A stretch of 58,077 nucleotides of DNA, the filler included, from Jimgerdemannia flammicorona (taxonomy: Eukaryota): the NCBI GenBank assembly GCA_003990765.1. It is 3 parts of 3 records of this genome, joined end to end, with 100 filler letters (N's around TTAATTAATTAA, not from the genome) between each part and the next. Parts side by side here need not be neighbours in the genome. Positions count along the whole stretch, not along the records: positions 38,787 to 58,077 come from RBNJ01001980.1; 2 more parts are not named here. One strand, 5' to 3'. Position 1 is the first letter of the stretch. Every line of letters starts with the position of its first letter. The notes beneath the pieces are model-generated. The model was not told the DNA's origin, ran no database searches, and saw nothing but the letters and a program-made list of their open reading frames with translations. This document shows, one piece after another, positions 5,018 through 56,428 of this stretch. The translations under genes were made by a program, and so were the position numbers.

Positions 5018-5092
5018 ATGATTCTGCGAAACGATGGAACGATGACTCTGCTGAACGATGGAACAATGAATCTGCTGGACGATGGAATGATA
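5018..5092. repeat. Three imperfect 24-bp tandem repeats
   Basis: GATGATTCTGCGAAACGATGGAAC / GATGACTCTGCTGAACGATGGAAC / AATGAATCTGCTGGACGATGGAAT. Confidence 0.7.
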
Positions 5093-10252: not shown

Positions 10253-11067
10253 TGTAAAGTTACAAAGATACTATATATTATAATGTTACAAATATAAAAA
10301 ATATTGATCTAAAAGGAAATATTATATAAGACAGTTACTCAAATTAACTTATTTGTTGAAAGAACCTCTAGTCTAATACTAAAAGCAAAGTGTCCTGCAC
10401 ATGAGGAGGCTAATGTGAGATGAACAGTGTTCTATATAAAATGAATCTAATGTGGGACATGGGTTTGGCTCAAAGGAAGCATACGATTCCAAAGGCCCGC
10501 CAATCGCATTCGTATGTGAAGAGGCCGGGCACACATTTATTGTTCCAAAGGGGGATGGGTGGGAGGGGTGCGTGAAATCGATTGATACAAATTACTAATG
10601 ATGATTGCTAGAGTATATTGAGGGAAATGTGTGGCCACTGCCTAACTCTTGGGCATGCAGTTGGAGCTTGGGCTAGCTAAGGTAGGGTGCAGAAAGCGAT
10701 TGAAACTGACTAAGCTAAGATGGTGGATTGTATGATTACATTGCATGAATGTTTAAGCACATGGTAGGGTGCAGGAAGCAATTGAAACTGACTAATCTAA
10801 GATGGTAGTTGCATTGCACAATGAATATTAGATGCATAAGTGTTAAGTGCAATGGCCACTTTGCTCATTTTGAACTATGTTCACAACTATATCAAAGTGT
10901 CCCGCACATGAGGAGGCTAACGTGAGATGAATAGTATTCTATATAAAATGAATCTAATGTGGGACATGGGTTTGGCTCAAAGGAAGCATACGCTTCTGAA
11001 GGCCCGCCAATCACATTCGTATGCGAAGAGGCCAAAGAACCATGGGCCTGGGAAGTGGGCAAGGCTC

Positions 11068-14997: not shown

Positions 14998-16778
14998 GAT
15001 GTATCTGAGAGATAGTGTGTGAAATCAATTGATATGAATTACTAACAATGATTGCTAGAGTATATTGAGGGAAATGTGTGGCTGCTGCCTAACTCTTGGA
15101 TATGCGGTTGGAGCTTGGACTAGCTAAGGTAGGGTGCAGAAAGCAATTGAAACTGACTAAGCTAAGATGGTAGATTGCATGATTACATTGCATGAATGTT
15201 TAAGCACATGGTAGGGTGCAGGAAGCAATTGAAACTGACTAATCTAAGATAGTAGTTGTATTGTGTGATGAATGTTAGATGCACAAGTGTTAAGCACAAT
15301 GGCCACTTTGCTGCATTTTGAACTATGTTCACAACTATATATAAAAACAGAAAATTATAAGATAGAGATACTGTTCAATTTAAATCTAATTTTTCAAAAT
15401 TCAATAACTCAACCAAACCTATCCAAATTTAATAAATTTTAACTTATTAGATATATCTTCATCAGTTATTGCATTTTGAAGTTAGGATAAAACTTTTGAA
15501 TCACTATAAATAATTACAAAACTCTACTTTATTATATAAGTAAAAAATAATAATAAAATAAATATATTAATATATCTCAAATGAGATCAAAATTTCATTT
15601 AAAATAAGCAAATATAACTTCTTATATATTTATTATTAATTGTTATAATCTAATAATTTCAAGTTAAATTTAAATAAGTTAAGTTTAAATATATGTAAAT
15701 ATAAATTAAAACAAATAAAAAAAATACATTATTTTAATAATAATTAATTATATTTTAATATATTGTAATATACTAGCTCAATGGAGATAAATTATAAGAT
15801 TGGAACTGATATATAGATTAGCTTGAGCTCTCAGTTATTTTGTTAAAAAGTAATAAAATATTTAATAGTTTCTAATATAAGTTCAAGTAGTATATAATGT
15901 AAACAATTTCAGTAGTTTTCTAATTAGACAGATTTGATATAATATAGTATTTCAAATAGATTCTCTTAAATATAATAGATTTCTCTTCTGGCTTAGTCTG
16001 ATAAGTATACCAAATATATCAGATTTTCTTTCTGGCTTTATCTAATAAGTATACCAAAAGAGCAGAGTTCTCAAATTTAGGCTTAATCTAGTAAGCAGAC
16101 CTAAATTAGCAGACTTTTCTTCTTTATATTAAAAAGTAGACTAAAGTGAAAAAGAAAGCTCAAATTTCCTAAATAGTAGCTATAAAGCAGATATTTCTCC
16201 TAAGTATTGTAGTCTTTCCTAGATTAAGTGGCTTTTGGTAGATATATCTCTTAAAGAATATTAGAAAGACTTATCTTTTACTTTGGAACTTTTTAGACTC
16301 TTCTTTATATTAGAAAGTAGACTGGAGTATAAATTGGATATTATGTTATCTTACTTTTAATACAAATTTCTGACTGAGGTTTATTTACTATTATCAATGA
16401 GATATTTTATATACTTGTAGTTACTTACTAATTACTATATAATCAATTATAAAATATATATTAAAACTCATTTAGAAAAATATTCCCTTAGGAGACAGAT
16501 ATTTCTTTAGATTATAGATCTTCTCTCAGAGTATATATTTACTCTGAATCTATAAAATTTATTATAATTTTATATATCAGCTATTTATATAGTAGTGGTA
16601 TAAGGAAAAACTATATAGAATCACTATGCTGTGTATTTTTATATATTATCCAGCTATACTATAATGTTTTCTTATTATATTAGCCCTCACTATACAATGT
16701 TCTTTACTCAGACTATCCTTTAGTCATTATTCTAATATCCATAGGCATATTCTGCATCTATGTCTGTATCATTATCTC

Positions 16779-17844
16779 TTTTTTTTTTTTTTTAACAGAC
16801 TCAAAGTCCTGCAGATTTTTAATGGGAGAGAACCTGGACTATATAGGCCAAAAACCTCTCCTACCACCCATCAAGCACTGCCCCCCCATTAACATAGGCT
16901 AACTATTGTCCAGCAGCTTCACCATGCCAGGTGCAGCAGGGCCTATATTAGCCTATACCTCATTCTACATACCATGCTCTCTCTACTATCAGGGGGAACT
17001 CAGCCATATGCTAATGACTGAAAGCACATGTCCAAAACCCCAATGTGTACAAGACTATGCCCAAGTCAAATAGAAAAGCCCCTACCACCCCAAAGAGAAT
17101 AATAGGCAAAGAAAAACCCTCATCAAAGTATATCACAGTAGATAGGGCCTGGTTCTCCCAGATGAGGTGAGTAGAGGACTTATACATGAGGTGAGAGGAG
17201 ACCCCCAATATCCTGCTACTCAAGCCTGTGGGCCTTGATCATGTTTCCATATCAGCTCCCTGTTCTAGTTAAGTATAGCCAAGACATCGGAAATGGATAG
17301 CCTTGGGCCCCCCAACCCCCCCCAATGACTAGGGCCCAATCTGCTGAATTGCCAAAAGAAGCCCATAGTGACACCTACCACCTAACCACTCCATACCAAT
17401 CAAAAGGCCCCACTAAAGCAGCACCTGCCCCAGCCCTGACAACTGCCCCCAGCCTAGCACCCTACTGGTATCATAATCACCCTTCTACCAATCTGTAATA
17501 GCCATCTCTCCTCCCATCCCAACAACATCTAAAAAACAGTCACATATACCAGAACCATACTCACCAGGAAGCTTGCCAAAGCCAGAGGGCTCTACCACAG
17601 ATACTGAGGACCTGCAGGTAACCTACACTGGGCACTTGATGCCCAAGGTTTGCCAACTCTCTAAGTAACCTATGATGCATCAAGACAACACCTTATTGGT
17701 AACAGCAAAAGAAAGAAGGCACTATATCAAAATGAGTATACTCCAGATACAGCTAAAGGTACCAGAATTAGCAAAAAAGTAAAGAAGACACTGATTGGAT
17801 ACTAATAAAAGGACAACTTATCACTATTGCCCTCCTTCTACCAT
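16779..17844 (-). mobile_element. 5'-truncated polyA non-LTR retroposon (copy 1), 16-bp TSD
   Basis: PolyT at 16779-16793. TCTGTATCATTATCTC is duplicated at 16763-16778 and 17845-17860. Homologous to 55232-56428. Confidence 0.88.
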
Positions 17845-19394: not shown

Positions 19395-20342
19395 AAAAAA
19401 AAAAAAATTATAATAAAATTATATATAATAATAAAAAAGACTCTTATTTCAATAGAATATTATATCAATTTATAGTTTTTATTTTTATTTTATAAAGTAT
19501 ATTAAAAAAAACTAGTAGCTAAGTTAGAACTTTTTTTCTCTAAGCTATATTATATTGTTGAGAGATTTATATATCTGTATAATTTATATGATTATGAGAT
19601 TTATATAGTTGAGAGAATTATACAGCTGTGAGATCAATTGACTATTAATTATATAATACTATACTATATCAGAAATCTGATTTAGATATTATGATCAAAT
19701 ATTTATTCTATAATTATTATTCTTAATTCAGATCAACTATTATAACTTTTTACTGAATAAGTCATTTCATCTGTGAATTATTGTATTTAAACTTTTATAT
19801 TCTAACTAGTGTAATATAGCAGATGCTTACTCTTGAAAGTATGTCAGATTTCTATATCTTGAAAACTTGACTGTTCTAACTCTCGCAGAGTCCTTGGGGT
19901 TGCAGGGGAGGGTGGGTGAGTTCAAAGTATATCTGCCCACAGGCTTACTAGTTCCTTTGCTATCTCTTTGCTTTTTGAACTATTTCAATCTGAGACTTTA
20001 TTCACTCTGAGATACTAGGTTATTTATACAAGTTTTGCTAGCTATAAGATGACTAAGTTATGACTATATTTCCTATATATGAGTCATTTCTTTCACAAGT
20101 GTTAAATCCTTAATATCTGTTAAATCTTTAACAATTGTCAAAGAGTTTAACATCTGTGAATAGTTTAAAATTTGTAAAAACTTTAATGTTTGTGAAATGA
20201 CTACTATCTGGGCTATACTATATTTGGGAATCAGATTCAGATATCATGATCAAATGTCTTATTCCCCTGATTTGTATTACTAATTCAGATCAACCATCAC
20301 AACTTCCTCCTGAATAGGTGATTTGTCTCTGAAACATCCTAT

Positions 20343-20804
20343 TTACTCAAACTCCCATATCTTTATGATTTGTATCTCCTTGTACTGTACAATTTGTGTC
20401 ATTACATTCTCCCAGTGATATCTTTTGATATGTCTGAAATCTCCTGGAACTACTCCTCAAAGGTGGGCTAAGGCTGGCTCGTCATCTTTGAACAACTTGT
20501 TGATTCGTTTAGCAATTGTGATCTGAGCATGGGAAAGCTGGCATTCTCTAATCCAGTCTTCTTTTCCCATCTCTGACTGCGAATTCAGTAGTTGTCCCAG
20601 TTTGAAGTATTCTTGAAACTTGGTTCAGTTCTGATTGGCCTTGAAGTGTGAAATTTGTGACAGGTGTGTCTGGACTATGCTTTGGATACTGTCAAAGGAT
20701 TCCTCCATGGTGGGTGGTTCAGTGGTATACCATTGTCTTTCTATGGCTCGCTGTGCAGCACTAATGATCTTGAGAGCTGAGGTGGTACTCCTCTGGTTAG
20801 CCAT
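20343..20804 (-). pseudogene. ORF3 accessory protein (153 aa) between integrase and 3' LTR, copy 1
   Basis: MANQRSTTSALKIISAAQRAIERQWYTTEPPTMEESFDSIQSIVQTHLSQISHFK...EYFKLGQLLN...FKDDEPALAH.... Two internal TGA (probably from CGA). Same length as copy 2. Confidence 0.75.
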
Positions 20805-21985
20805 GGTACCTCTTGAGTCAGTTTCAGTAAATAGTAGTGGGGATGATTGTGCCTGAGAGTTTTCATAGCCAAAAGGTGGTCCCTTTTATATCTTGCACAA
20901 GGTAAGGTCCTTCCCACTTGGGCTCCAGTTTTTATGATCATGAAGCTTCTACCATATTCCAATATACCAGGACTTTGTCTCCTATCTTGATAATCTCTGG
21001 GTTTGTGGGTCTTTTCTGCATTCTTCTATTATAGTGCTTGTACCTTGGTTATGTAATCTTTGGCCCTCTTCCTGATTTGGTGTAGTCTCCATATTTCTCC
21101 ATCCATATGTTTCCATACAACATCTCTATTGGACAATAGGGTTTCTCAAGAACTTTCTTCTCCAAACAACATCTCTTGAGGGGTAAAGTGGGTACTTTGT
21201 GATCTGATATCCTGGAGAGCAGATAATGCTATTGGCAGATAGTGATTCCAGTTTTCATAGTTATCACAGATCTTGGCAATAACATTTTTGAGGGTCTTGT
21301 TAGTCCTTTCTGCTTGTCTGTTTTCTTGAGGGTGATAAGCTGTGGTCTGAATGTGCTGGATCTTGTACTTCTTATAGAGAACCTCAAAGAACTGGTTCAC
21401 AAATTTGGTTCCTCTATCTGTAGTTACTTGCATTGGGGTCTCGAACTGACAGATGATTTCTTTGTAAAAGAATTTAGTGATTGACTGTGCATTGACTTCC
21501 TTGAGGGGTCCTGCTTCTATCTATTTTATAAAAAGGTCTATGATGACAATGATATATTGGTTGCCAGTCAAGGTCAAGGGTAGAGGGCCAATTACATCCA
21601 TTGCTATGTGGGCAAATGGTACTGGTTCTATGTGTGCTGATCCCAGGGCTTGGTTTTGTTGCTCTTGTTTCTGTTTCTGGCATTTGTCACAGGTTTTGAC
21701 AAATTGTCTGATATCTTCCTCCATTCCTGGCCACCATATCATTCTTTTTGCCTTATCATATGTATTTGTTCCTCCTAGATGGTCAAGTTTATGTACTGAT
21801 TTCATTGCTTGCTCCTTCTTGTGTTCTGGTATGACTTGTAGTTTTTCTTTCTTCAGTGTTTCTCCATCAGTTTCAAATTGTTTCCATGTTCTGTTGATAA
21901 TCATTTGTGTCCATTCTTCCAGATGTTGGGGCATCTTTCGCTGTTTCAGATAAGTGATGATTCTATAGTAAAGTTCCTTATTCAT
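20797..21985 (-). pseudogene. ORF2 integrase, copy 1 (own ATG, +1 frame relative to RH)
   Basis: H..DHLG...WWPGM...CDKCQ zinc domain; MDVIGPLP; TTDRGTKF; YHPQENRQAERTN; KLEPKWEGPY. No chromodomain seen. Confidence 0.88.
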
Positions 21986-24900
21986 GATTGATTTATTGGT
22001 TGGCAGTATTTCGGGGTGTCTGTGAGAGAGCATCTGCATTGGAATTTGTTCTTCCAGGGCAGTACACAATGGTTATGTCATAGGCTTGTAGCATCATTAT
22101 CCATCTGGCATAGATTTCTTTGGGTTGTCCAGTTGTCAGTAGCCAGGTAAGAGCTGAGTGGTCTGTCTGGATGGTAAAGTATCTTCCAGCCAGATAGTAG
22201 TGGAACTTTTCCACAGTCCAGATAACTGTGAGACATTCCAACTTATAGGATTCATATTCTTTTTCAGCTCCTCAGGTTCTGTGACTAAGGTATATAATGA
22301 CATACTCTTTTTTGTCTTTCTTTTGAGCTAGAATTGCTCCTAGCCCCTGTGTACTTGCATCTGTCTGCAGAATGAATTCTTGAGTCCAATTGGGTCATTT
22401 GAGGATGGGTGCCTGGGTCAGTCTGATCTTGAGTTCATCAAATGCTTTTTGTTATCTGCCAGTCCACTGGAACTTGGTATCCTTCTTATTGAGTTCATAG
22501 ATTGCACCTGTGATGTTGGAGAATCCTCTAATAAATCTGTGATAGTAGGAGACAAGTCCCATGAAGGCTTGGGCTTCTGTAACAGTAGTGGGCCTTGAGT
22601 ATGCTGCTACTGCTTGTATCTTAAGGGGGTCTGTGTGTGTTCCATCTCAATTGATAACATGGCCAAGGTAGGAGATCTTGATTTCTGCAAACTTGCACTT
22701 CTTGGGTTTGATGTAAAGGCCATGTTGTCTTAGTCTCTCCATTATCTGCCATATGTGCTGCAGATGTTCTTCAGATGTCTTGCTGTAGATGATTACATTA
22801 TCAATATAAACCATCATCCATCTTCCCATATCATAGCAGAAGATTTTGTTCATCATTTGCTGGAAGCTTGCTGGTGTATTACACATCCTGAATGGCATTT
22901 GCAGGTAGATGTAGATTCCATCTGGGGTTATGAAGGCTGACTTTTCACTTGCTATTTCTGTGAGTCTGATTTGGTGGAATCCTGAGTATAAGTCCAAGGT
23001 GCTGTAGTACTGTGCTTCATCTCCTAGTGTTATGAGGATATCACTGATGAGGGGCAGTAGTTGGCAATCCTTCTTGGTAACTGCATTGAGCTTTCTGTAG
23101 TCAACACAGAGTCTTGGGGCAAATTCTCCAAGCTTGCTTCCTTTTTTTGGGGCTAGTACAACTGGTGAAGACCAGGGGCTGCTGGCTTTCTTGATAATAC
23201 CAGCTTCTTCCATCTGCTTGATTTCTTCTCTGAGCCATTCTCAGTAGGCTGGTGGGACAGGTCTTGCCTTCTGGTAAATTGGTTCAGTATCTCTGATATC
23301 TACCTCATAATAGTAGTGTGGAGTCTTTTCTTTGATATCCTTGAAATCTGTGACAAGAACATCCTCAAATTTACAGAGTAATTTCTTGAGTTCCTCCTTG
23401 AGTGGGAATTCATCTTCAATGGTGTAGCTGTGCTCATTTGTGGTTTCCTCCTTCTTATACTTCAGTTCAGTGATCTTGGTACTAGCAAATACTCCTCTTC
23501 CTCTGGATCTGAATCCTTTCTTTCCTCTTTTTATTTCCTCCAAATTCTTGACTTCTATGATCCTTAGTTGTAGGATTGGAAAGATCAACATCTGCGCCAG
23601 TTGATCCTTCTTCTTGACTGGGAATGGGATTGTAGGATTGTGATTCCTGGCAATGAGCAGGATTTCTCCAGTATAGTCAGAATTGATGACTCCCCCTTCA
23701 ATAGTAATTTTGCTTCTGGCCAGGCTGCTTCTTGTCTTGCAGATCCCAACATGATCCTTTGGAATGGTCATCTCCAGTCCAGTTGCAAGTAGGGTGGTTG
23801 TCAGGGGTTCCAGTATAGCTTCTTCTACTATGGCAATGTCCATTCCAGCTGCATTTTCTGACTTGTATTCTGGCAAAACTGCATCAGGGTGGGTCCTTCG
23901 AATCTTGACCTTGATTTCTTCTTCATCATCATTATCTTTCAGGAGGGCTGGTGGTTCATCATCTTCCTCCTCCTTCTCTTCTCTGGCCTGTTTTTCAAGA
24001 GCTTTCTGTCTTCTTTCCTGGTGGGTCTTCTTGATTCCAATAGTGCACTGGTAGCAATCATTGATATGCTCTATACAGTACATCTTGATCCCATGAGGAC
24101 AGACTCCTAGTGGTGCATAATTTTCTGCAATCTTCTTGCACCATTCTTCTTCACTCATCCATCCAACTTTCTTCTTTGGAGTAGTCACCATATAAGCTTC
24201 CTCTTGCTCACTCTCTTCTTCCTCCATGTCAGGCAAGACTCCTTTATTGATATTGATGGGAATTTGTATCTTCTGTCCCCAATAGGTGATTTGTATCTTC
24301 TGAGCATTAAGATCGATTACTGCCCTGGCTTTGTGAAGCCATTGATTGCCAATAAGGATATTATAGTTGGTAGCATTGGTTACGATTACATCTACTGGGA
24401 TGGTTGCTCCTCCAATCTTGATGGAGACATCTTGGATCTTTCCCAGAGGGGTGGCTCTTGTGCCATCTGCTGTGACAAACACCAACTTGGTTGCTTCTTC
24501 AATCTCCCAACCTAGGTGGTCTGCTGCCTTCTTGCTGAGAAGATATCCTTCTGTTCCAGTATTGATGATGGCTTCAAAGATTCTATCTTCAATTTGGTAT
24601 GTTATAGGCAGAGGTTTTGCAATTGTCTTCACTTTCTTCTCCTGAGTCCTCCTGAATATTATTGGCCTCAGTTATCTTCCATCCTTGCTCCTTGGTTATT
24701 TTGGTGAGTCTGAACCTCATTTGCTGTCTGAATGTTGGGATTTCTGTAAGCTGACCAAAAGTTGCGTTGACCTTTTGTTGGCTAAGGTCCTTGAAGATAT
24801 CATACTTGAAAGTCTTGGTCTTGCAAAGTTTCTTTTCTTTTTCTCCTTCACTGGCTGAAGTGGTTCCTCAGATAATATCTTGAACAGCTTGCTCCAGCTC

Positions 24901-25963
24901 CATATCTTAGTCCATCTCTTTGACTTGCATTTCCATAGTGATTTCCATTTGTTTTTCCACTGGATTCTTCTTGGATCTTCCTGGTGGTCTCTTGTAGGGT
25001 TCCTTGCAAACATCCTTCTTAGTGGTCTGGGCAAGATAGGCCTCCCATTCTTCTTCATTGGAATCTCCAATTTCTTCAAAGATAATTGTGTTGGCCTACT
25101 CCTTGTTTCTAGTAGCATTACTTGATTGGGCCTTGTGCTTGGTTTCACTCATGCATTCATAGAAGTAGTGGCCTTCTTCTCCACAGGTGTAGCAGGTACC
25201 TTTCTTCTTGTCTAAGGTGGCAGCAAACTTCTGAACAGGGCAGCAGTCCCTTTCTCTGATCTCCTTTACCATATCTCTCAGGTAGGCAGTCATTTCCACA
25301 AACCTCTTGGTAAGTTCCTCCAAAGAGTCACTGTTCTTTTGCTGCTCTGTAGCTTTTGGCTGAGGTGTGTTTCGATTGATCATTGTGATAGGGATCACAC
25401 TGCTTGTCTTGGGTGCTTCAATTCTGACTCCTGTGACCCTCTCCATTGTATGGTCTTGTGGGTATCTGACTATCCAGTATCGCTGAGCATAGGTGACCTT
25501 CTGTGATAGATCCAGAATTACTGGTGATGAGCAGATGGCCATGGCTATTTCTGGGTGGACTCCTTTCATGAAGGTTGCTTTGGCTACTTGGTCTCGGATA
25601 GTATTAGCATAATCTGTAAGGATTATCTGGTATCAGATTCTTGTGTAGAATGTGTTTGGATCTTTACTTATTTTGGCATGTTGTATTGAGCTGATCCTTT
25701 AGAGCTTGCTTGATCTCATCTGTATAGTAGGCATTTCAAAGCCAGGTCTTCTGTGCTATCAGTGTAGCATCAGCATTATTTCCTGCATGGTATACAGCTG
25801 TGAATGCTGCTCTTGCAGGGCCTTGTAGGCTAAAGGTCATAAGGGCTACTTGCTGTGCTGCTGTCAGGGCCCTTACAGTGGTATATTACTCGAAATCATC
25901 AATGAAGGTGATGATTGATTCATCTGAGGTATATCCATGAAATACTGGTGGTCTTATATCCAT
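21978..25963 (-). pseudogene. ORF1 Gag-PR-dUTPase-RT-RNase H polyprotein, copy 1 (stops, small indels)
   Basis: MDIRPPVFHG, CYTCGEEGHYFYEC knuckle, AIINTG protease, dUTPase, RT (SPWSSPVVL, LCVDYRKLN, LDLYSGFHQI, YIDN), RNase H (QTDAS, TDHSAL, NSNADALS). Confidence 0.9.
23499..23915 (-). CDS. dut: Trimeric dUTPase domain within gypsy Pol
   Basis: Five motifs: AAGMDI, TRSSLA, GGVINSDYTGEI, DQLAQML, RGKKGFRS. Confidence 0.93.
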
Positions 25964-26562
25964 CTTGTCTGGGTATTGGAGCTCAGTTTGTATAGTTGTT
26001 CAGGTAGTGGCAGTTGTTTGTTGTTCAGCTTGAAAGTGAGGGATTCGTCTTGAATCACCAGCCAATGGGCACTAAGTTGTAATGTAGCAGACACTTACTC
26101 TTGAAAGTATGTTGGATTTCTGTATCTTGAAAACTTGACTGTTCTGACTCTTGCAGAGTCCTTGGGGTTGCAGGGGAGGGTGGGTGAGTTCAAAGTATAT
26201 CTGCCCACAAGCTTACTAGTTCCTTTGCTATCTCTTTGCTTTTTGAACTATTTCAATCTGAGGCTTTATTCACTCTGAGATACTAGGTTATTTATACAAG
26301 TTTTGCTAGCTATAAGATGGCTAAGTTATGACTATGTTTCCTATATATGAGTCATTTCTTTCACAAGTGTTAAATCTTTAACATCTGATAATCATTGAAG
26401 AGTTTAACATCTGTGAATAGTTTAACATTCATGAAAACTTTAACATTTGTGAAATGACTGCTATCTGGGCTATATTATATTTGGGAATCAGATTCAGGTA
26501 CCATGATCAAATGTCTTATTCCCCTGATTCGTATTACTAATTCAGATCAACTGTCACACTAG

Positions 26563-29420
26563 TTATATGTTTTTATACTGTGTGATCTGCTTAATTATAT
26601 TCTCTTAATAATATTTCTTTATCTACCAAAATTCTCCAAGTATTACTCCTTAGAAATAGATCAGAGCTTGCTTATTATCTTTGAATAATCTATTTGATAA
26701 TTGTAATTTGGGTATAATATCTAATCCTTGGTGATCCACTCTTCTTTAGTTATATATTTTTTCTTATTTAGTAATTATTCTATTTAAAGTACTCTTAAAA
26801 CTCAGCATAATTCTGATAGACTCTAAGATATACAATATATGATTAGTGAGTCTGTATAATATTTTGAATACTATCAAAAGACTATTCTATAACAGGCAGC
26901 TCAATTGAATACTATTTTCTTTCAATAGCTTACTAGTCAGTACTTATAATTTTGGTAGTTATAATAGCACTTTATTGGTTTACTATAGTTTTTTTATTTT
27001 TTTTTTTATTTTTTTTTATAGTTACTTTGGACTTTACTATTTATTATCTATTCAGTCTATTAAGATATAATTACAATATCTCAACCCACTATCCAATCTC
27101 CTAAGAGGGACCTCCCACTATACTATTATAATTGAATGCTATCTTACTATCTCTCACTATAACTCTCCTTCTACTTAGTTAACTATAGTACTTCTTGAGT
27201 CAGCTTTAGTGAATAATATATAGCAGAGATAATTATGTCTAATAATTTTTATAGCCAAAAGGTGGTTTCTTTTATACATATTTTATATAATATAATATCC
27301 TTTTCACTTAGCTTTTGTTTTTGTAACTACATATAAAACTTCTATTATATTTTAATATATCAGAACTTTGTCTCTTATCTTAGTAATCTCTAAGTACTTG
27401 TAGATCTTTTCTCTATTATTCTATTGCAATGTCTGTATCTTGATTATCTAATCTTCAGGCTATGTTCTTATTTAATACAATCTCAATATCTTTGTATCTA
27501 CTTGTATATCTATATATTAGATAATAAGAATTCTTTAGAACTTTCTTCTCTAAATAGTAATTCTTAATAGGTGAAGTGAGTACTTTAATCATATATTCTG
27601 AAGAGTAGATAATATAGAAGGTAGATAGTTATCTCAATTTTCATAGTTATGGAAAATCTTAGCAATAATATTTTAAGAGTTTTGTTAGTTCTTTCTATCT
27701 GTCTATTTCTCTATAGATAAGCTATAGTTCAAATGTACTAAATTTTATACTTTTTATAGAGAACCTCAAAGAGCTTATTTATCAGAGTCTTAAATTATTA
27801 AATAAATTCTTTATAAAAAAATTAGCAATTGACTATATATTAGCTTCTTTTGTAAAGAGGTCCATAATGATAATGTTATATTAGCTATCAGTCAAAGTCA
27901 GAGGTATCAGATTAATTACATTAATTGCAATATGAGTAAATAATACTGATTTTATGTCTACTGATCCTAATATCTGATTTTATTAATCTTACTTCTGTTT
28001 CTAATATTTATTATAAGTCTTGACAAATCTTCTGATATCTTTCTCTATTTCAGACCAATACATTATTCTTCTTATCTTATTATAGATATTTGTACCTCCT
28101 AGATAACTAAATTTAGATACTGACTTTAATACTTATTTCTTCTCATACTCTGGTATGACTAATAGTTTCCCTTTTTTTGATTTTTTTCTATTAGTTTTGA
28201 ATTGTTTTCAGCTTCTGTTAATAATTATTTGTATTCATTTTTTAGATGTTAAAATATATTTAACAATCTTAGATAGATAATAATTCTATAGTAGAGATTT
28301 TTATACATTTTGGTTTTACTGGTTTAAGTCCTTCAAGATATCTGTGAGAGGATGTCTACATTGGTATTGACTCTTCTTGGGCAGTATATAATGGTTACAT
28401 TATAGACTTATAGTTTTATAATCTATCTAAAAAATATTCATTAGAGTTTTCTTATAGTCAATAACTAGATCAGGGGCTGAATATTAATCATAATAGTGAA
28501 GTGTCTTTCTGCAAGATAATATAGAACTTTTCTACAGCCCAGATAATAGCAAGATACTTCAGCTTTTTGAATTTATATTATCTTTCTCCTCTACAGATTC
28601 TTTAGCTGAGATATATAATCACATATTTAATTTTATTCTTATTTTATACAAAGTAGCACCTAGTCTAATTGAGCTCACATCTGTCTATAGAATAAACTCT
28701 GAAGATTAGTCAGATCTTCACAAGATAGGTACCTGGATCAATCAGGTCTTGAGATGTTCAAAAACTTATTATTATCTACTAGTCTATTGAAACTTAGTAT
28801 TTTTCTTAAATAGTTCATAGATAAGATTTGCATTATTGGAGAATCCTTTGATAAACATACTGTAATAAGTAGTAAGTCCTATAAAAGCTTGAGATTCTGT
28901 AACTGTGATAGATCTTGAGCAGACTGTGATTGCTTGAATTTTAATAAGATCTATATAGATTTTAGTCTAATTGATGATATATCTAAGATAAGTGATTTTG
29001 ATTTCTGAAAACTTACACTTCTTTGACTTAATATACAGATCATATATCTTAGTTTTTGTAAGATTTAGTAGATGTGATTTAGATATTCCCTAGCTATCAT
29101 GCTAAAGATATTATATTATTCACATATACTATAATCTATTTTTCTATATCTTTGTATAAGATCTTATTTATTATTCTCTGGAAACTTACTGGGGTATTGT
29201 ATATTCTGAATAGTATTTACAGTTAGACATAGGTTTCTAAAGTTCTGAGTATAAATTCAATATAATGTAGTATTGTACTTTATCTTCTATATGTATCACT
29301 AATGAGGAGCAGTAGTTGGTAGTCCTTCTTGGTGATCTCATTGAGCTTTCTGTAGTCTATATAGAGTCTTGGAGAAAATTCTTTTAACTTGCTTCCTTCT
29401 TCAGAATTAGTACAATTAAT
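26563..29420 (-). mobile_element. Older, heavily mutated related gypsy element (RT-RH-IN-ORF3) interrupted by copy 1; its 3' end continues at ~19660-19805
   Basis: Collinear, TpA-shifted similarity to copy 1 RT/RH/IN. The ORF3 homolog reads continuously across the CTAG insertion site. LTR-edge and purine-tract remnant at ~19725-19760. Confidence 0.8.
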
Positions 29421-30261
29421 AGTTAGGCTGTGCCACCACATATTGAGTTGCTATATAACTAAGATATTTCAATATGAATAAAGAGTAGAGCTATATTATT
29501 GATATTGCCATTAAATCGATCTTGCTTATAATTTATACCTATGAAAAAACAGCCATAGTTTGCTTTGAAACCCACATGTCGTGGTTTACGCTCTCACTGA
29601 TGGTGGTAAAGACGGAATATTCTGACTATGAGATGTGCCGAGATCGAGCAATGCAGGTTCACCCTACATACTCTTCCTGTATTTAACCAGAATAGAGAGT
29701 AATATAAATAAATTAATAATAATATTAAAACGAAAAGAAAAAGGGAGAAACCCTGTACTGAGATTAATATATTTGACAAAGAGCAGCATTTTGATTGCAG
29801 CGTTGCGATTGATGACGTAGATTTTGATGATGTCGACATTACTGGCGTAGTATCCACAACAAATAACTTGCCAAACATGAGCACGTTGTATGACGAATTG
29901 GGAACTTTGTACATGTTGATCGCACACCAAAATCACACAGGCTGCGGATATCGGCAGTTATGGAGAGGTTGGTCCAAAGTTGCATCCTGACCAGCGTCAC
30001 ACGGATACTCTCCCATATAAAATTATTTTATTTATTTGGTCTTTATCATGCCTTAATTCAAAGCCAATGTTCAAATGATAATACAACAATTTGATTTTTC
30101 TTTAAATATATATATTTTTATAAGCATAAGAATGGTTTTGTCTCAGAGTCAGTGCATAGCATGCTATTGTATCTAAGCATGTAAATACGTTCAAGTAAAA
30201 AAAAAAATAAAAAAAATAAAAAAAATACGAACTTATCTACGACAAAGCAAAAATTGGAGGT

Positions 30262-42420: not shown

Positions 42421-43717
42421 TATATCAGTCTGGTCTCTTATAGATAAGTATCTTTAAGAGATCTTAAATTATCTGAGAAGAATAAAATTTATAAATAATG
42501 ATAATAAAATTTTATATTAATATATTATTAAGTATAATATAAATTATAATTAAAATATTATATTTAGATACTATATATTATACATATATATATTAGATTT
42601 TATAAATAGATATATATAAGTTATATTAGATTTAGGGTTAGTAATTAGAGTTAAGGTTAGGATAGGTTTAAGTAAGATTAGAGTAGATTTAGTAGAGTTA
42701 GAGTAGGTTAAGTTATGTTGAGGTTAGATTAGAAAATTTCAAATAAATTATTATATATATATATATATATTTTATTTATATAATATAATTATTATAATAT
42801 ATAAGTAAAATAATATATAATTGAATAAATATTATTTATACTATTATTTTAATAAGTTATAATAGTTAAAATACTCTTTGAGATAATTAGTCTCTAGACT
42901 ACTTTTCTTATTATAGATTATAGAGATTTTCATTTATTGTGATAAGTGGTAGATTATTCTACTAAAATTATAAATTAGCAATATATCTTATCTAGTATAC
43001 TAAGTAACCAAAACTGCTTTATATTCTATTCTGTATAATTAGCTAAAGATAACAGAAATAGTATTTTTACCTATATTGGTCCAATATACTATACTGAGTA
43101 AATATGTTATATCAGTCCAGTATACTATACTATCTAGTATAATGACTGATCTGAATTAGTAACATAAAACAGGGGAATTAGACATTTGATTGCGGTATCT
43201 GAATCCGATTCCCAATATAGCTTAGCCTCATAAATAGCAGCCACATTCTGCAAAGTGCAGAAACTTTAACATTTGCAAGGATTTAGAAGATGTTAGAATC
43301 TTCGCAATCAGCAAAATCTTAGCAGATGTTAAAAGATTCAGTACTTGCAAAATGAGCCATTACTTAGCCACCTTATAGTTAACAAAACTTGTATAAATAA
43401 CCCAGTATCTTAGAGTGAATAAACCTCAGATCGAAATAGTTCAAAAGTAAAGAGATAGCAAAGGAACTAGTAAGCCTACAGGCAGATACACTTCAAACTC
43501 ATCCACCCCTACATCCCAAGGACTCCGAGAAGTCAGAGAAGATCAAGTATTCAAGATACAGAAATCTGACATACTTTCAAGAGTAAGCATTTGCTACATT
43601 ACAACTTGGTGTCCATTAGCTGGTAATTCAAGACAAATCTCTCACTTTCAAGCTGAATAACAAACAACTGCCACTACCTGAGCAACTATACAAACTGAGC
43701 CACAATACCCAGACAAA

Positions 43718-46700
43718 ATAGATATGAGACCACCAGTATTTCACGAGTATATATCAGATAAATCAATCATTACCTTCATTGATAATTTCAAGCAGTATAC
43801 TACTATAAGGACCCTGACAGCAGTACAGCAAGTAGCCCTCATGCCCTTCAGCCTATGAGGTCCTGCCAGAGCAGCATTCACAGCTACAACCCATGCAGGA
43901 AATGATGCTGATACCATACTAACAGCACAGAAGACCTGGCTCTAAAATACATATTATACAGATGAGATCAAGCAAGCCCTGAAGGATCAGCTCAATACAA
44001 TATACCAAGGAATAAGTGAGGATCCAAACACATTCTATACCAGAATTCAATATCAGATAATTCTCGTGGATTATGCTGCTGCTATCTGAGATCAAGTAGC
44101 CGAAGCAACCTTTATGAAAGGAGTTCACCCAGAGATAGTCATGGCCATCCGTTCATTACCAGTAATCCTGGATCTGCCACAGAAGGTCATGTATACTCAG
44201 CGATATTGGACAGCCAGACACCCACAAGACCATACAATGGAAAGAGTCACAGGAGTCAGAATCAAAACACCAAAGGCAACTAGTGTGATCCCTACTATAA
44301 TGATCAATTGAAACACATCTCAGCCAAAAACTACAGAGTAGCAAAAGAACAGTGACCCTATGGAGGAACTTGCCAAGAGGTTCACCAAAATGACTGCCTA
44401 TCTAGGAGACATAGTAAAAGAAATCCAAGAAAGAAACCACCACTTAGTTCAGAAGTTTGCTACCACCTTGGATAAGAAGAAAGGTACCTGCTATACTGGA
44501 GAAGAAGGCCACTACTCCTATGAATGTATGAGCAAAACCAAGTGCAAGGCTCAACCAAGCAATGCTATATGAAACAAGGAGCAGGCCAATACAATTACCT
44601 TCGAGGAAATTGGAGATTCTGATGAAGAAGAATGGGAGGCCTATCCTGCTCAGACTACTAAGAAGGATGTTCGCAAGAAACTATACAAGAGATCACCAGG
44701 AAGACCCAAGAAGAACTCAGTAGAAAAGTAGATGGAAACAGCAACTGAAAGTCAAGCTGAAGAGATGGACCAAGATATAGAGCTGGAGGAAGCAGTTCAA
44801 GATATTATCCGAGGAACTACCATAGCCAGCGAAGGAGAAAAAGAAAAGAAACTTCACAAGACCAAGACTTTCAAGTATGATATCTTCAAGAATCTTAGCC
44901 AACAAAAGGTCAATGCAACCTTTGGACAGCTCACAGAAATCCCAACATTCAGACAACAAATGAGGTTTGGACTTGCCGAAACAACCAAGGAGCAAGGATG
45001 GAAGATAACTGAGGCCAATAACATTCAAGAGAACTCAGGAGAAGAAAGTGAAGACAATCGCAAAACCTCTGCCTATGCAATATGCCAAATCGAAGATAGG
45101 GTCTTTGAAGTCATCATAGATACTGGAGCAGGAGGATATCTTCTCAGTAAGAAAGTAGCAGACTGCCTAGGCTGGGAAGTTGAAGAAGCAATCAAGTTGG
45201 TTTTTGTCACAGTAGATGGCACAAGAGCCACCCTTCTGGGAAAGATCTGAGAAGTCTCCATCAAGATTGGAGGAGCAACTATTCCAGTAGATGTAATTGT
45301 AACCAATGCCACCAACTATGACATCCTTATTGGCAATCAATGGCTCCACAAAGTCAGGGCAGTAATCAATCTCAATGCCCAGAAGATGCAAATCACCTAC
45401 CGGGAACAGAAGATATGAATTCCCATCAATGTCAACAAAGGAGTCTTGCCTGACATGAAGGAAGAAGAGAGCAAGCAAGAGGAAGCTTATATGATGACCA
45501 TACAGAAAAAGAAGAAGAAAGTCAGATAGATGAATGAAGAAGAATGGTACAAGAAGATTGCAGAAGGATATGCATTACAAGGAGTCTGCCCACATGGAAT
45601 CCGAATGTACTGTATGGAGCATGTCAATGAGTGCTACTAGTGCACTGGCAAAATCAAGGAGATCTACCACCAAAGAAGAGAGAAGACCCTCAAGAAACAA
45701 GCCAAAGAGAAAAAGGAGGAGGAAGATGATGAACCACCAGCCCTTCTGGAGGACAGTGATGATGAAGAAGAAATCAAGGTCAAAATCTGAAAGACTCACC
45801 CTGATGCAGTCCTGCCAGAATACAAATCGGAAAATACAGCTAGAATGGATATTGCCACAGTGGAAGAAACTGTACTTGAACCCCAGACAACTACTCTACT
45901 TGCAACTGGCCTGGAGATGACCATCCCAAAGGATTATGTTGGGATCCTCAAGACAAGAAGCAGTTTGGCAAGAAGCGAAATTACGATTGAAGGAGGAGTC
46001 ATTGATTTAGACTACATTGGAGAAATACTACTCATCACTAAGAATCACAATTTTACTATTCTATTCCCAATCAAGAAGAGGAACTGACTGGCACAGATAT
46101 TGATCTTTCCAGTCCAATAACTAAGGATCATAGAAGTCAAGAAGTTGGAGGAAATGAAAAGAGGAAAGAAAGGATTCGGATCCATAAGAAATGGAGTATT
46201 TGCCAGTACCAAGATTACTGAACTAGAGCACAAGAAGGAGGAAATCACAAACAAGCACAGTTATACCATTGGAAATGAATTTCCACTCAAGGAGGAACTC
46301 AAGAAAATACTCCATGAATTCAAGGATGTTCTCACCACAGATTTCAAGAATATCAAGGGAAAGACCCCACACTACTATCATGAGGTAGATACTAGAGACA
46401 CCAAACCAATTTACCAGAAGGCAAGACCTGTCCCACCAGCCTACTGAGAATGGCTCAGAGAAGAAATCAAGCAGATAGAAGAAGCTGGTATTATCAAAGA
46501 AGCCAGCAGCCCCTGGTCTTCACCAGTTGTACTAGCTCCGAAAAGGAAGCAAACCTGGAGAATTTGCCCCAAGACTCTGTGTTGACTACAGAAAGCTCAA
46601 TGCAGTTATCAAGAAGGATTGGCAATCACTGCCCCTCATCAGTGACATCCTTATAATACTGGAAGATGAAGTACAGTACTATAGTACCTTAGACTTATAC

Positions 46701-47708
46701 TCAGGATTCCACCAAATTGGACTCACAGAGATGGCAAGTGAAAAGTCAGCCTTCATCACCCCAGACAGGACCTACATCTACCTATGAATGCTATTCGGGA
46801 TGTGTAATGCACCAGCAAGCTTTCAGCAAATGATGAACAAAATCTTCTGCTATGACATGGGAAGATGGATGATGGTCTATGTCGATGATGTAATCATCTA
46901 CAGCAAAACACCTGAGGAACACCTGTAGTACATACAGCAGATTATGGAAAGACTGAGAAAACACAGCCTGTACATCAAGCCCAAGAAATGCAAGTTTGCA
47001 GAAATCAAGATCTCCTATCTTGGCCATATTATCAATCGAGATGGAACACACATGGACCCCCTCAAGATATAAGCAGTAGCAGCATACCCAAGGCCCACCA
47101 CTGTTACAGAAGCCCAAGCATTCATGGGACTTGCCTCCTACTATAATAGATTTATTAGAGGATTTTCCAACATTGTAGGTCCAATCTATGAACTCAACAA
47201 GAAGAACATCAAGTTCCAGTGGACTGGCAGACAACAAAAAGCATTTGATGAACTCAAAGTCAGACTGACCCAGGCACCCATCCTCAGATGACCCAATTGG
47301 ACTCAAGAATTCATCCTGCAGACTGATGTAAGTATACAAGGACTAGGAGTAGTTCTAGTTCAAAAGGAAGATAAAAAAGAGTATATCATTGCATACCTAA
47401 GCAGAGGAACCCAAGGAGCTGAAAAAGAATATGAATCCTACAAGTTGGAATGCCTTGCAGTTATCTGGGCCATGGAAAAGTTCCACTACTATCTGGCTGG
47501 AAGACACTTCACCATTTAGATGGATTACTCAGCTCTCATCTGGCTACTGACAATTGGACAACCCAAAGGAATCTATACCAGATGGATAATGAAGTTACAA
47601 GCCTATGATGTAACCATTGTACACTGCCCTGGAAGAACAAATTCCAATGCAGATGCTCTCTCACGGACACCTTGAAACACCCCCAACCAACAAATCAATT
47701 ATGAATAA
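43718..47708 (+). pseudogene. ORF1 Gag-PR-dUTPase-RT-RNase H polyprotein, copy 2
   Basis: ORF pieces at 44114, 44360, 44732, 45845 and 46145 are all in one frame (no gag/pol shift). IIDTGA protease, dUTPase 45773-46186 (GVIDLDYIGEI, RGKKGFGS), RT YVDD, RH NADALSR. Many premature stops. Confidence 0.9.
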
Positions 47709-48907
47709 GGAGCTCTACTATGGAATCATCACATATCTGGGACAGCAAAAGATGCCCCAACACCTGGAAGAATGGACACAAATGATTATCAACAGAACAT
47801 GGAAACAATTTGAAACTGATGGACAAATACTGAAGAAAGGAAAACTACTAGTTATACCAGAACACAAGAAGGAGTAAGCAATGAAATCAGTATATGAACT
47901 TGGCCATCTAGGAAGAACAAATACATACAACAAGGCAAGAAGAACAATATGGTGGCCAGAAATGGAAAAAGATATCAGACAATTTGTCAAAACCTGCGAC
48001 AAATACCAGAAACAGAAACAAGATCAACAAAACCAAGTCTCAGGATCAGCATATATAGAACTAGTACTATTTGCCCATATAGCAATAGATGTAATCAGCC
48101 CTCTACCCTTGACCCTGACTGGTAACTGATATATTATTGTCATCATAGACCTTTTTACAAAGTAGATAGAAGCAGGACCTCTCAAGGAAGCCAATGCACA
48201 GTCAATCGCTGATTTCTTCCACAAAGAAATCATCTGCTGGTTTAAGACCCCAATGCAAGTAACTGTAGATAGAGGAATAGAATTTGTGAATCAGTTCTTT
48301 GAGGTTCTCTATAAGAAGTATATATAAGATCCAGTACATTTGGACTACAGCCTATTATCCTCAAGGAAATGGACAAGCAGAAAGGACTAACAAGACCCTC
48401 AAGAACATTATCGCCAAGATCTGTGATAACTATGAAAACTGGGATCACTATCTGCCAATAGCATTATCTGCTCTCCAAGATATCAGATCACAAAGTACCC
48501 ACTTTACCCCTTGAGAAATGCTGTTTAGAGAAGAAAGTTCTCAAGAAATCCTATTGTCTAATAGGGATGCTGTATGGAAACATGTGGATGGAGAAATATG
48601 GAGACTACACCAAATCAGGAAGAAGGCTGAGGATTACATAATGAAGGTACAAGTACTACAATAGAAGAATGTAGAAAAAACCCACAAACCCCTGGAGATT
48701 ATCAAGATAGGAGACAAAGTCCTGGTGTATCGGAACATGGTAGAAGCCTCATGGTCATGAAAACTGGAGCCCAAGTAGGAAGGACCTTACCTTGTGCAAG
48801 ATATAAAGGGAACCACCTTTCGGCTATGAAAACTCTCAGGCACAATCATCCCCACTACCATCCACCAAAACTGACTCAAGAAGTATCATGACCAGTCAAT
48901 GAAGTAA
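47701..48907 (+). pseudogene. ORF2 integrase, copy 2 (own ATG overlapping the ORF1 stop)
   Basis: ATGAATAA junction. GHLG..WWPEM..CDK, YPQGNGQAERTN, EGPY. Confidence 0.88.
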
Positions 48908-49349
48908 TACTGCTACCCTCAGAATTACTAGCATGGCCCAGTAAGCCATTGAAAGACAGTAGTGTTCTACCGAGCCACCAACAATGGAAGAATCCTTTGA
49001 TAGCATCCAGAGTATAGTGCAAACACACTTGTCACAAATCTCACATTTCAAGGCCTACCAGAACCAAACTAAGTTCCAGGAATACTTCAAGTTGGGACAG
49101 CTACTGAATTCAAGACTGAAGATGGGAAAAGAAGACTGGATTAGAGAATGTCAACTCTCCTACACTCAGATCATGATTGCAAAAAGGGTGCATAAGTTAT
49201 TTAAAGACGATGAGTCAGCCTTAGCCCATTTCTGAGGAGTAACCCCAGGAGACTTTGGATATGTCAAGAGACAATATTAGAAGGATGTAATGACACAAAT
49301 CACACAGTATAAGGAAATATAAATTATAGAAGCCAGGGAATTTGAGTGA
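48888..49349 (+). pseudogene. ORF3 accessory protein (153 aa), copy 2
   Basis: Contains ORF 48984-49235 (MEESFDSIQ...EYFKLGQLLN...AKRVHKLFKDDESALAHF). Extends in frame through stops to 154 codons, as in copy 1. Confidence 0.75.
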
Positions 49350-50289
49350 ATAGGATACTCCAGAGATAAATCACCTATTCAGGAGGAAGATGTGACAGCT
49401 GATCTGAATTAGTAACATGAAATAGGGGAATTAGACATTTGATTGCGGTACCTGAATCTGATTCCCAATATAGCTTAGCCTCATAAATAGCAGCCACATT
49501 CCACAAAGTGCAGAAACTTTAATATTTGCAAGGATTTAGGAGATGTTAGAATCTTCGCAATCAGCGAAATCTTAGCAGATGTTAAAAGATTCAGTACTTG
49601 CAAAATGAGCAATTACTTAGCCACCTTATAGTTAACAAAACTTGTATAAATAACCCAGTATCTTAGAGTGAATAAAGCTCAGATCAAAATAGTTTAAAAG
49701 CAAAGAGATAGTAAAGGAACTAGTAAGCCTGTGGGCAGATATACTTCAAACTCATCCACCTCTATATCCCAAGGACTCCGAGGAGTCAGAGAAGATCAAG
49801 TATTCAAGATACTGAAATCTGACGTACTTTCAAGAGTAAGTGTCCACTATGTTACACTAGATATACCTACTATAGATAGTAATCTATAATGAATAATATA
49901 GTAACTAAATAGTAACTACAACTGTATAAAATACTCCAGAGATAATAGTGATTAAAAAATCAATCCAAAAAAGTTCAAAAAGCAAAAAACCAGTCTGTCT
50001 TTTATATTTTGTAAGAAACTCTATAGCTATTACTTAGAGATTGTAAGCTTACTTTCCCCACTTTGGTTCACTTTCTAATATAAAGAATAAGTTTGTTTTT
50101 CAAGAAAAGTATATTTTTAGTTTACTATTTAGATAAGTGAAGAGAAATCTATTATTTCCAGAGAGCTCACTATGAAATCTTGCTATAAGTCAGTCTATCT
50201 GATATAACTTTACAGTAGAGCTAGTATATTATAACCTCATATAAATAAAGCCAGTCTTTGATAAAGAATATATATCTGAGCTATTTGTA

Positions 50290-55231: not shown

Positions 55232-55260
<29 letters not shown>

Positions 55261-56428
55261 TGAACTCAATGTCTTGTGGATTTTTATTGGAAGGGAACCT
55301 AGACTATATAGGCCAAAACCCTCTCCCACCACCCATCAAGCACTGTCTCCCTATTAACCCAGGCTAGCTATTATCTACCAGCTCAACCATATCAGGTACA
55401 GTAGGACCTATGGCAGCCCGCACCTCATTCTGCACACCATCTCTCCCTACTACCAGGGGAAACCCAGCCATATGCCAATGACCAAAAGCATATACCTGAG
55501 AATCCAATGTATGTATAAGGCCATGTCTGAGCTGAATAGAATAGCCTCTGCCACCCCAAAGAGAATGACAGATAAAGAAAAAATCCTTATCAAAGCACAA
55601 CATAGTCGGTAGAGGCTAGTTCTCTCAGTTGAGGTGAGTAAAGAACTTACACATGAGGTGGGAGGAGACTCCCAATACTCCACTACTCAAGTCTGCAGGT
55701 CTCAATCACATTGCTATTTCAGCTCTTGGTTCTAGTTGAGTATAGCCAAGATGCCTAAAATGGGTAGCCTTGGGCCCCCTGACTCCCTCAGATGACTGGG
55801 ACCCAATCTGCTTAATTGCCAAAAGAAGCTGAGAGTGATACCTACTATCTAACTATGCCGCACCAATCAAAAGGCCCCACTGAAGAAGCACCCACTCCAG
55901 CCCCAATGACTGCCCTTAGCCTGGTACTCTACTGGTTTACTGTTATTGTCCTTCTTCTTATCTGTGATAGCCATCTCTCCTCCCATCCTAACAATACCTA
56001 AAAAGCAGTCACCTATACCAGAACTGTGCTCATCAGGAAGCTCACCAAAGCCAGAGGGCCCCATTACAAGCACTGAGGACCTGCAGGTAACCTACACTGA
56101 GCACTTGATGCCTAAGGTCAGCTGACTCTCTACATAGTCCAAGAAATACCGAGACAGTACCTTATTAGCAATGACAAAAGGAAGAAGATACTACACCAAA
56201 ACAGATATACTTCAGATATAGCCGAAGGCACCAGAAACTGCTAAAAAGTGGAGAAGACACTGATCTGACACTAATAAAGAGGCAACTTATCACTATTGCC
56301 TCCCTCCCACTATACTGCAACAGGTACAGCAAACCAACCTGAGGTAGAGGGGATAATAATTATAGAAAGTGGACTTGGAAGGTTGCCTACCAAACCATTG
56401 TGACCAGTAAGATAGTGGAGAAAGGATG
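55232..56428 (-). mobile_element. 5'-truncated polyA non-LTR retroposon (copy 2), 13-bp TSD
   Basis: PolyT at 55232-55258. TATAAATGAAGTC is duplicated at 55219-55231 and 56429-56441. Homologous to 16779-17844 and ~120 bp longer at the 5' end. Confidence 0.88.

Follow-up and report, generated by a model that had tools for sequence, protein, structure and literature searches.

The window analysed here is a 58,077-nucleotide stretch of DNA from Jimgerdemannia flammicorona (assembly GCA_003990765.1), composed of three parts of the genome joined end to end. It contains two full gypsy-type retrotransposons with long terminal repeats (LTRs), in opposite orientations: copy 2 at positions 43146-49840 on the plus strand and copy 1 at 19810-26558 on the minus strand. 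The genes of copy 2 are arranged in the order gag, protease (PR), dUTPase, reverse transcriptase (RT) and RNase H (RH), followed by integrase (IN) and by a further frame, ORF3. In each full copy ORF3 is a 462-nucleotide frame of 153 codons and a stop, located between IN and the polypurine tract (PPT), at 48888-49349 (plus strand) in copy 2 and at 20343-20804 (minus strand) in copy 1. The PPT of copy 2, CAGGAGGAAG, occupies 49380-49389 on the plus strand, 30 nucleotides past the ORF3 stop and directly before the 3' LTR; that of copy 1 is at 20303-20312 on the minus strand. ORF3 is a genuine protein-coding gene of the retrotransposon, and purifying selection acts on it as strongly as on RT and IN.

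The initial annotation of the window had described a frame that lies between IN and the PPT and is equally long in both copies. The two ORF3 sequences have this length at the positions given above, and they align without a single insertion or deletion. Many third-position changes had been reported between them, and the synonymous example quoted is real, as both copies read D-S-I-Q-S-I-V-Q-T. ORF3 of copy 2 has six internal stop codons, and that of copy 1 has two, both TGA, at codons 60 and 116. Every internal stop faces CGA, CGG, AGA, AGG, TGG, CAA or CAG in some other copy, so that C>T or G>A changes can account for all of them, as had been proposed. At codon 116 the two window copies have TGA, the metagenomic relative L001 described below has an arginine codon, and database relatives have R, W or Q, which is the spread expected of a deaminating CGA or CGG codon. 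The homolog noted earlier in an older third element was found at 26980-26557 (minus strand) as a remnant with many stops, interrupted near codon 147, where copy 1 inserted. Its amino acid identity is 39-48 %. The element to which it belongs is AT-rich, heavily mutated and of the same family (26557-30000, minus strand); copy 1 was inserted into it with a CTAG duplication. The third element continues behind copy 1 at 19809-19659 (minus strand) with the last ORF3 codons, a decayed PPT and the start of an LTR.

A near-intact element of this family is located on L001, a metagenome contig of 6479 bp, words of which are present in soil-metagenome runs from 14 studies and in runs of one organism. A single frame at 774-4619 of L001 encodes gag, which includes a CCHC knuckle, followed by protease, dUTPase, RT and RNase H. 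It is followed in the +1 frame by IN with an H2C2 zinc domain and an rve core (4504-5838), and in the next +1 frame by ORF3 (5795-6256), all 153 codons of which are open and encode protein P0024. The order of Pfam domains in L001 is zf-CCHC, aspartyl protease, dUTPase, RVT_1, RT_RNaseH, Integrase_H2C2 and rve, which places the dUTPase between PR and RT, and neither IN nor ORF3 has a match to the Pfam Chromo domain. The three frames with overlapping starts and stops that the initial annotation had proposed for the window copies, Gag-Pol with dUTPase, IN and ORF3, thus recur in L001. Pol, IN and ORF3 are each shifted by +1 relative to the preceding frame in all three copies, that is, copy 1, copy 2 and L001. 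The presence of IN as a cistron of its own is unusual for an LTR element.

Selection on ORF3 was assessed by the Nei-Gojobori method in the same three copies. In the ORF3 frame the proportion of synonymous differences (pS) is 0.69-0.78, which is near saturation, and the proportion of nonsynonymous differences (pN) is 0.11-0.14. The ratio pN/pS is 0.15-0.20 in frame, compared with 0.7-2.1 for the other two frames; in the same elements it is 0.19-0.22 for RT and, where the window copies are compared with L001, 0.13-0.22 for RH and IN. The differences at the first, second and third codon positions number 34/17/66 between copies 1 and 2, 30/12/66 between copy 1 and L001, and 32/17/69 between copy 2 and L001. 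Counting transversions only takes out the C>T and G>A decay, and the second positions remain depleted in the resulting counts (8/1/11, 13/2/25 and 7/3/24). There is no insertion or deletion in ORF3 among the three DNA copies, which share only about 75 % of their nucleotides, and the frame is open for 153 amino acids in L001 and in the proteins P0008, P0017 and P0024. The earlier view of ORF3 as a selected accessory frame, for which a comparison of substitution rates had been recommended, agrees with a ratio this far from 1, with the lack of frame-breaking indels, and with the lack of a match in Pfam or the Protein Data Bank (PDB) to a described ORF3 or IN C-terminal domain. The conservation of ORF3 as tightly as RT across saturated synonymous sites indicates that the element needs ORF3.

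The position of ORF3 next to the PPT, the good conservation of the 40 nucleotides from the ORF3 stop to the LTR, and the stops in both window copies could be taken to mean that the frame is not translated, and represents a cis-acting RNA or DNA element or an open frame that survived by chance. This is extremely improbable. Amino acids are kept across synonymous sites that are close to saturation, the depletion of second codon positions holds even among transversions, the exact length persists across copies of about 75 % nucleotide identity, and the motifs of the protein are retained in a subfamily of about 25 % identity. The codon-position pattern already contradicts an untranslated frame.

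The divergence of copies 1 and 2 is not uniform along the elements. Their pS is 0.20-0.33 through gag-pol-IN and 0.78 in ORF3, and their nucleotide identity declines from about 87 % in gag-pol-IN to 75-80 % in ORF3 and the LTR (48600-49840 compared with 19810-21090). The drop begins at the border between IN and ORF3, and identity remains low through the LTR. These shifts show that the history of the 3' module, formed by ORF3 and the LTR, differs from that of gag-pol. The elements are mosaics with a breakpoint near the IN/ORF3 border, most likely as a result of recombination between subfamilies.

The copy 1 translation, with its stops written as X, was compared by phmmer with 1.84 billion representative proteins and had four matches at E <= 0.001. 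These matches are 49-165 amino acids long, and no long polyprotein is among them. When P0003 was used in a word-based search, 11 of 14 candidate proteins scored E <= 0.01, and cluster look-ups gave further members. Proteins P0008, P0017 and P0024 belong to subfamily A, have the full 153 amino acids, share 69-72 % identity with one another, and end in the C-terminal motif EAWEFE, as do the window copies. Shorter proteins of subfamily A may have been truncated, either where a contig ends or at a stop. Of 1794 candidates in a profile search, 29 proteins scored E <= 0.1, and these include a second subfamily, B, of about 150-170 amino acids. Alignment of the two subfamilies by hhalign has a probability of 96.9 % and an E-value of 1.7e-10 over 122 columns. 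Subfamily B has about 25 % identity and retains the same motifs: in the helical core, an invariant E-F-Q (EFQ..Y..G..N) and a TIAxRIYxLF(R/K)D..AL.H.(K/R)G block, and beyond it a C-terminal hydrophobic-x-x-W-x-hydrophobic peptide amid acidic residues (VEAWEFE or ELDEWDL). A methionine is present at column 1 in all 28 family sequences that reach this column. The sequence EGEYPPFIDFG and a tail with a net charge of -15 to -16 are found in subfamily B only. The contigs that carry members of subfamily B measure about 5-8 kb in some cases and 15 kb in one; scans of viral and genome contigs for the context of this subfamily found no relative, and a metagenome scan found L001 only. The ORF3 family, with its subfamilies of 153 and of about 150-170 amino acids, appears to be undescribed.

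The starts of IN and ORF3 both overlap the end of the preceding gene. At the Pol/IN junction the sequence ATGAATAA is identical in all three copies (47701-47708, plus strand, in copy 2; 21985-21978, minus strand, in copy 1; about 4603-4619 in L001). The start of IN overlaps the stop of Pol (RT-RH), the IN ATG preceding the Pol TAA by five nucleotides. At the IN/ORF3 junction, copy 1 contains ATGGCTAA (20797-20804, minus strand), in which the ORF3 ATG at 20804-20802 overlaps the IN TAA at 20799-20797. The overlap claimed in the initial annotation is therefore present, and copy 2 has one as well, from the ORF3 ATG at 48888-48890 to the IN TAA at 48905-48907 (48888-48907, plus strand). Measured from the ORF3 ATG to the IN stop, the overlap is 8 nucleotides in copy 1, 20 in copy 2 and 44 in L001, with ORF3 in the +1 frame in each case. 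The first 14 residues of ORF3 are conserved in the ORF3 frame, and the tail of IN that overlaps them is not conserved in its own. Synonymous sites in the last 30 codons of IN are mildly conserved (pS 0.41-0.53).

Stop-start overlaps such as UAAUG and AUGA are described as sites of reinitiation following a long open reading frame in caliciviruses, influenza B and the non-LTR retrotransposon SART1, with an efficiency that in the viral cases falls past about 30 nucleotides (PMC10275272). Coupling through UAAUG is also reported for the fungal hypovirus CHV1 (PMC2699510). As in these systems, the downstream frame of the elements studied here is out of frame with the upstream one, and its AUG precedes the upstream stop by a few nucleotides, as in ATGGCTAA and ATGAATAA. 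The text available from PMC10275272 and PMC2699510 gives no case of reinitiation demonstrated for an LTR retrotransposon. Together, the conserved ORF3 ATG, the parallel overlap at the Pol/IN junction and the viral precedents suggest that the three-cistron element is translated by a stop-restart mechanism. A spliced or internally promoted mRNA for ORF3 is possible.

The +1 relationship of Pol, IN and ORF3, each to the preceding frame, in all three copies would also suit production of ORF3 by +1 ribosomal frameshifting at or near the IN stop. ORF3 would then be a C-terminal extension of IN and would act as a targeting module at the site that the chromodomain occupies in chromoviruses; the present elements have no chromodomain. 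IN normally travels in a polyprotein, and C-terminal modules of IN direct targeting in related elements. We nevertheless regard frameshifting as unlikely. All 28 sequences that reach column 1 have a methionine there, and the position of the IN stop varies (8, 20 and 44 nucleotides from the ATG), which leaves no fixed site for a shift. The first 14 residues of ORF3 are conserved even though the IN stop of L001 follows them; a frameshift at that stop would remove conserved residues of ORF3 in L001, which favours independent initiation at the ORF3 ATG. No long protein with an ORF3 domain was found among all representative proteins of any length, and a word-based search for longer forms gave none among 339 candidates, the latter being weak evidence.

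The predicted ORF3 product has a mass of about 17.5 kDa. AlphaFold2 models it as an all-helical protein with eight helices; the predicted local distance difference test (pLDDT) score is 53.2 with a 21-row alignment and 57.1 with a 37-row alignment, the latter with a predicted template modelling (pTM) score of 0.53. The best-modelled segment comprises residues 40-120. The N-terminus, MANQRSTATALK, is polar. Kyte-Doolittle means taken over 19 residues reach at most 0.39, and there is no hydrophobic or transmembrane segment. The description of ORF3 as soluble, helical and distinct from Env is therefore consistent with both the model and the hydropathy. The structure prediction and fold comparison that had been recommended gave a helical model as anticipated, of low confidence and with no structural relative in PDB or BFVD. 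Members of subfamily A have isoelectric points of 5.7-8.8 and those of subfamily B of 4.6-5.0, and this near-neutral to acidic character weighs mildly against a basic nucleic-acid chaperone.

Searches for a known relative of the protein were negative. In Pfam, the best E-value for the two window translations is 0.035, which does not reach the cut-off; among 37 family members, P0024 has no match, and the best E-value in any member is 0.01. A sequence profile search of PDB gave a single match at E 0.093. Foldseek found no match at E <= 0.001 in PDB, among 344 at E <= 10, and none at E <= 0.001 in BFVD. The best Z-score of VIA-align against 48,161 chains is 5.0, inside the background for helical models. 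P0024 falls into unnamed clusters only of the ESM Atlas, and P0029 has no usable named match there. ORF3 has no significant similarity to the gag of its own element (tblastn E 0.52). Hints of a helix-turn-helix fold are at the level of noise: HTH_Tnp_Mu_2 was matched in two of the 37 members with a best E-value of 0.031, and ParB, KorB and SopB chains have VIA-align Z-scores of 4.0-4.3, within the background.

Two identities that could be proposed from the position of ORF3 were considered and rejected. ORF3 is not an Env protein, as it has neither a signal peptide nor a transmembrane segment, and it is not a chromodomain, as it has no Chromo match and starts at an ATG of its own in the +1 frame. 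The Env-like ORF3s of errantiviruses and Athila elements occupy the same position, between IN and the PPT or 3' LTR. They differ from ORF3 of this family, which lacks the signal peptide and transmembrane segment and has only 153 amino acids.

We cautiously favour the reading, to which we give a little better than an even chance, that ORF3 represents an undescribed family of soluble all-helical proteins, which is kept by purifying selection, produced by reinitiation, and involved in trans in a nuclear step, either as an adaptor or as a regulator. Ribosomes on the full-length RNA would finish IN at its stop and begin again at the ORF3 AUG close by, so that the output of ORF3 would be small and tied to the synthesis of IN. 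The protein would then act in the traffic of the pre-integration complex, in RNA traffic or in the targeting of integration, with the helical core holding a component of the element and the acidic aromatic tail recruiting a host factor. The adaptor role is suggested by the combination of a small soluble helical core, an acidic aromatic C-terminal peptide, putative coupling of its production to that of IN, and selection at the level of the enzymes.

Several observations weigh against this reading. The two copies in the window are dead, and L001, too, has a stop in gag (TGA) and another in IN (TAG). The 44-nucleotide overlap of L001 is longer than the roughly 30 nucleotides past which reinitiation becomes less efficient in the viral cases (PMC10275272). 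In contrast to the reinitiation systems of PMC10275272 and PMC2699510, as described there, the overlap varies, up to this length, and the IN/ORF3 junction showed neither a termination upstream ribosomal binding site (TURBS)-like element, which would tether the ribosome through complementarity to 18S rRNA, nor any stable RNA structure that is conserved; alifold predicts there a weak structure of -13.3 kcal/mol over 166 nucleotides from three sequences. As the model is of low confidence (pLDDT 53-57) and no fold match rises above background, the putative adaptor role is drawn from sequence features. The link of subfamily B to retrotransposons is deduced from homology and from contigs of about 5-8 kb.

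The conserved C-terminal peptide, present with its acidic flanks in both subfamilies, is open to another interpretation. The pattern fits the loose consensus of export signals and acidic activators. ORF3 could be a nuclear regulator, similar to Rev, CERV or Tas, of the export of element RNA or of transcription from the LTR, translated from a subgenomic mRNA that arises by splicing or internal initiation, and the acidic hydrophobic C-terminus would serve as its export signal or activation domain. CERV, encoded by the Ty3/gypsy element Cer1 of Caenorhabditis elegans, lends this idea a precedent. We consider such a regulator quite unlikely: no similarity to these proteins was found in sequence or fold, with the fold comparison depending on a predicted model of low confidence, and ORF3 is neutral to acidic and lacks a basic RNA-binding stretch. 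Contigs from four runs aligned to L001 contain no joint between the leader and ORF3, which carries little weight as the contigs are of DNA type.

CERV is the nearest functional precedent for the adaptor or regulator that we favour. CERV has 517 amino acids and is produced from a five-exon spliced mRNA with exons in common with gag (PMC10309623), whereas ORF3 has 153 amino acids, is encoded by one frame whose own ATG overlaps the IN stop, and does not resemble CERV in sequence. Gypsy polyproteins in which a dUTPase separates PR from RT, as found here, are described in the fungal elements PosPlaTy3-5 of Postia placenta, in Phanerochaete chrysosporium and in Tmt1 of Tuber (Novikova et al. 2010, PMC2864245). 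According to their description in PMC2864245, those elements have one or two open reading frames, whereas IN of the elements in the window is in a frame of its own. For some fungal elements, the legend of Figure 3 in the same paper names an 'add. ORF' with no assigned function, and this frame may be an earlier sighting of ORF3. LTR retrotransposons of bdelloid rotifers (Rodriguez et al. 2017, PMC5408684) likewise include gypsy-like lineages that carry a dUTPase and a third open reading frame that is not always Env. The rotifer ORF3s described there are Env-like proteins, GDSL esterases or DEDDy exonucleases, whereas ORF3 of the present family has no enzymatic or membrane signature. Among titles and abstracts on ORF3 of LTR retrotransposons, extra open reading frames of gypsy elements and reinitiation in retrotransposons, none describes the ORF3 protein or stop-restart translation of an LTR element.

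Additional genes of LTR retrotransposons are the raw material for retroviral env and regulatory genes. To our knowledge, functional evidence exists for very few of those that do not encode Env. Extra open reading frames in LTR retroelements are a known kind of gene, to which the present elements add an apparently undescribed ORF3 family and an unusual layout of three frames, in which IN and ORF3 each begin at an ATG that overlaps the preceding stop. If this layout reflects reinitiation, a strategy of RNA viruses, including those of fungi, would extend to LTR retroelements and would provide a simple means of setting the ratios of Gag-Pol, IN and the accessory protein. With no Pfam entry and no recognisable fold, the ORF3 family is a clean target for structural and interaction studies.

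IN of all three copies contains an in-frame TAG, at 48163-48165 (plus strand) in copy 2, 21523-21521 (minus strand) in copy 1 and 5074-5076 in L001. It is located where related integrases have tryptophan (..DLFTK*VEAGPL..). Of the 28 TGG codons of L001, one is a stop in copy 1, three are stops in copy 2 and none is a stop in both, which makes three independent hits at the position of the TAG unlikely. The pN/pS of 0.13-0.22 in IN indicates purifying selection on either side of the TAG. An inherited stop with readthrough, or a lineage complemented in trans, would explain why the codon is shared. A more elaborate scheme, which we consider rather improbable, would combine these features in a tri-cistronic LTR retrotransposon with two stop-restarts, readthrough of the conserved UAG of IN, and ORF3 as the founder of a family of host-factor adaptors without a known retroviral counterpart.

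A TGA in the N-terminal region of gag is common to L001 (771-773) and copy 2; copy 1 has CAA at this position. CGA codons are hot spots of decay, as 6 of the 28 in L001 are stops in copy 1, 8 are stops in copy 2 and 4 are stops in both. The gag TGA common to L001 and copy 2 is therefore likely to result from parallel deamination.

The LTRs of copy 2 (43146-43587 and 49399-49840, plus strand) are 94.6 % identical, and those of copy 1 (26078-26558 and 19810-20301, minus strand) are 92 % identical. They begin with TGTGA and end with TTACA, and thus have the TG..CA termini used to recognise LTRs. A 4-bp CTAG target-site duplication flanks copy 1 (26559-26562 / 19806-19809) and copy 2 (43140-43145 / 49841-49844). 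The paired LTRs, the PPT, the target-site duplication and the order of domains place the elements in Ty3/gypsy (Metaviridae). The identical CTAG duplication at both copies hints at a preferred palindromic target, from two cases only.

Two further pairs of repeats are present in the window. The direct repeats at 10568-10865 and 15015-15312 are 92 % identical and 4447 bp apart. The stretch that they enclose has a GC content of 48-53 % and a strong GC skew of 0.25-0.29, and the pair probably belongs to another LTR element of a different family. A dispersed direct repeat of about 1 kb, with 79-80 % identity, is present at 16772-17780 and 55237-56249, 38.5 kb apart.

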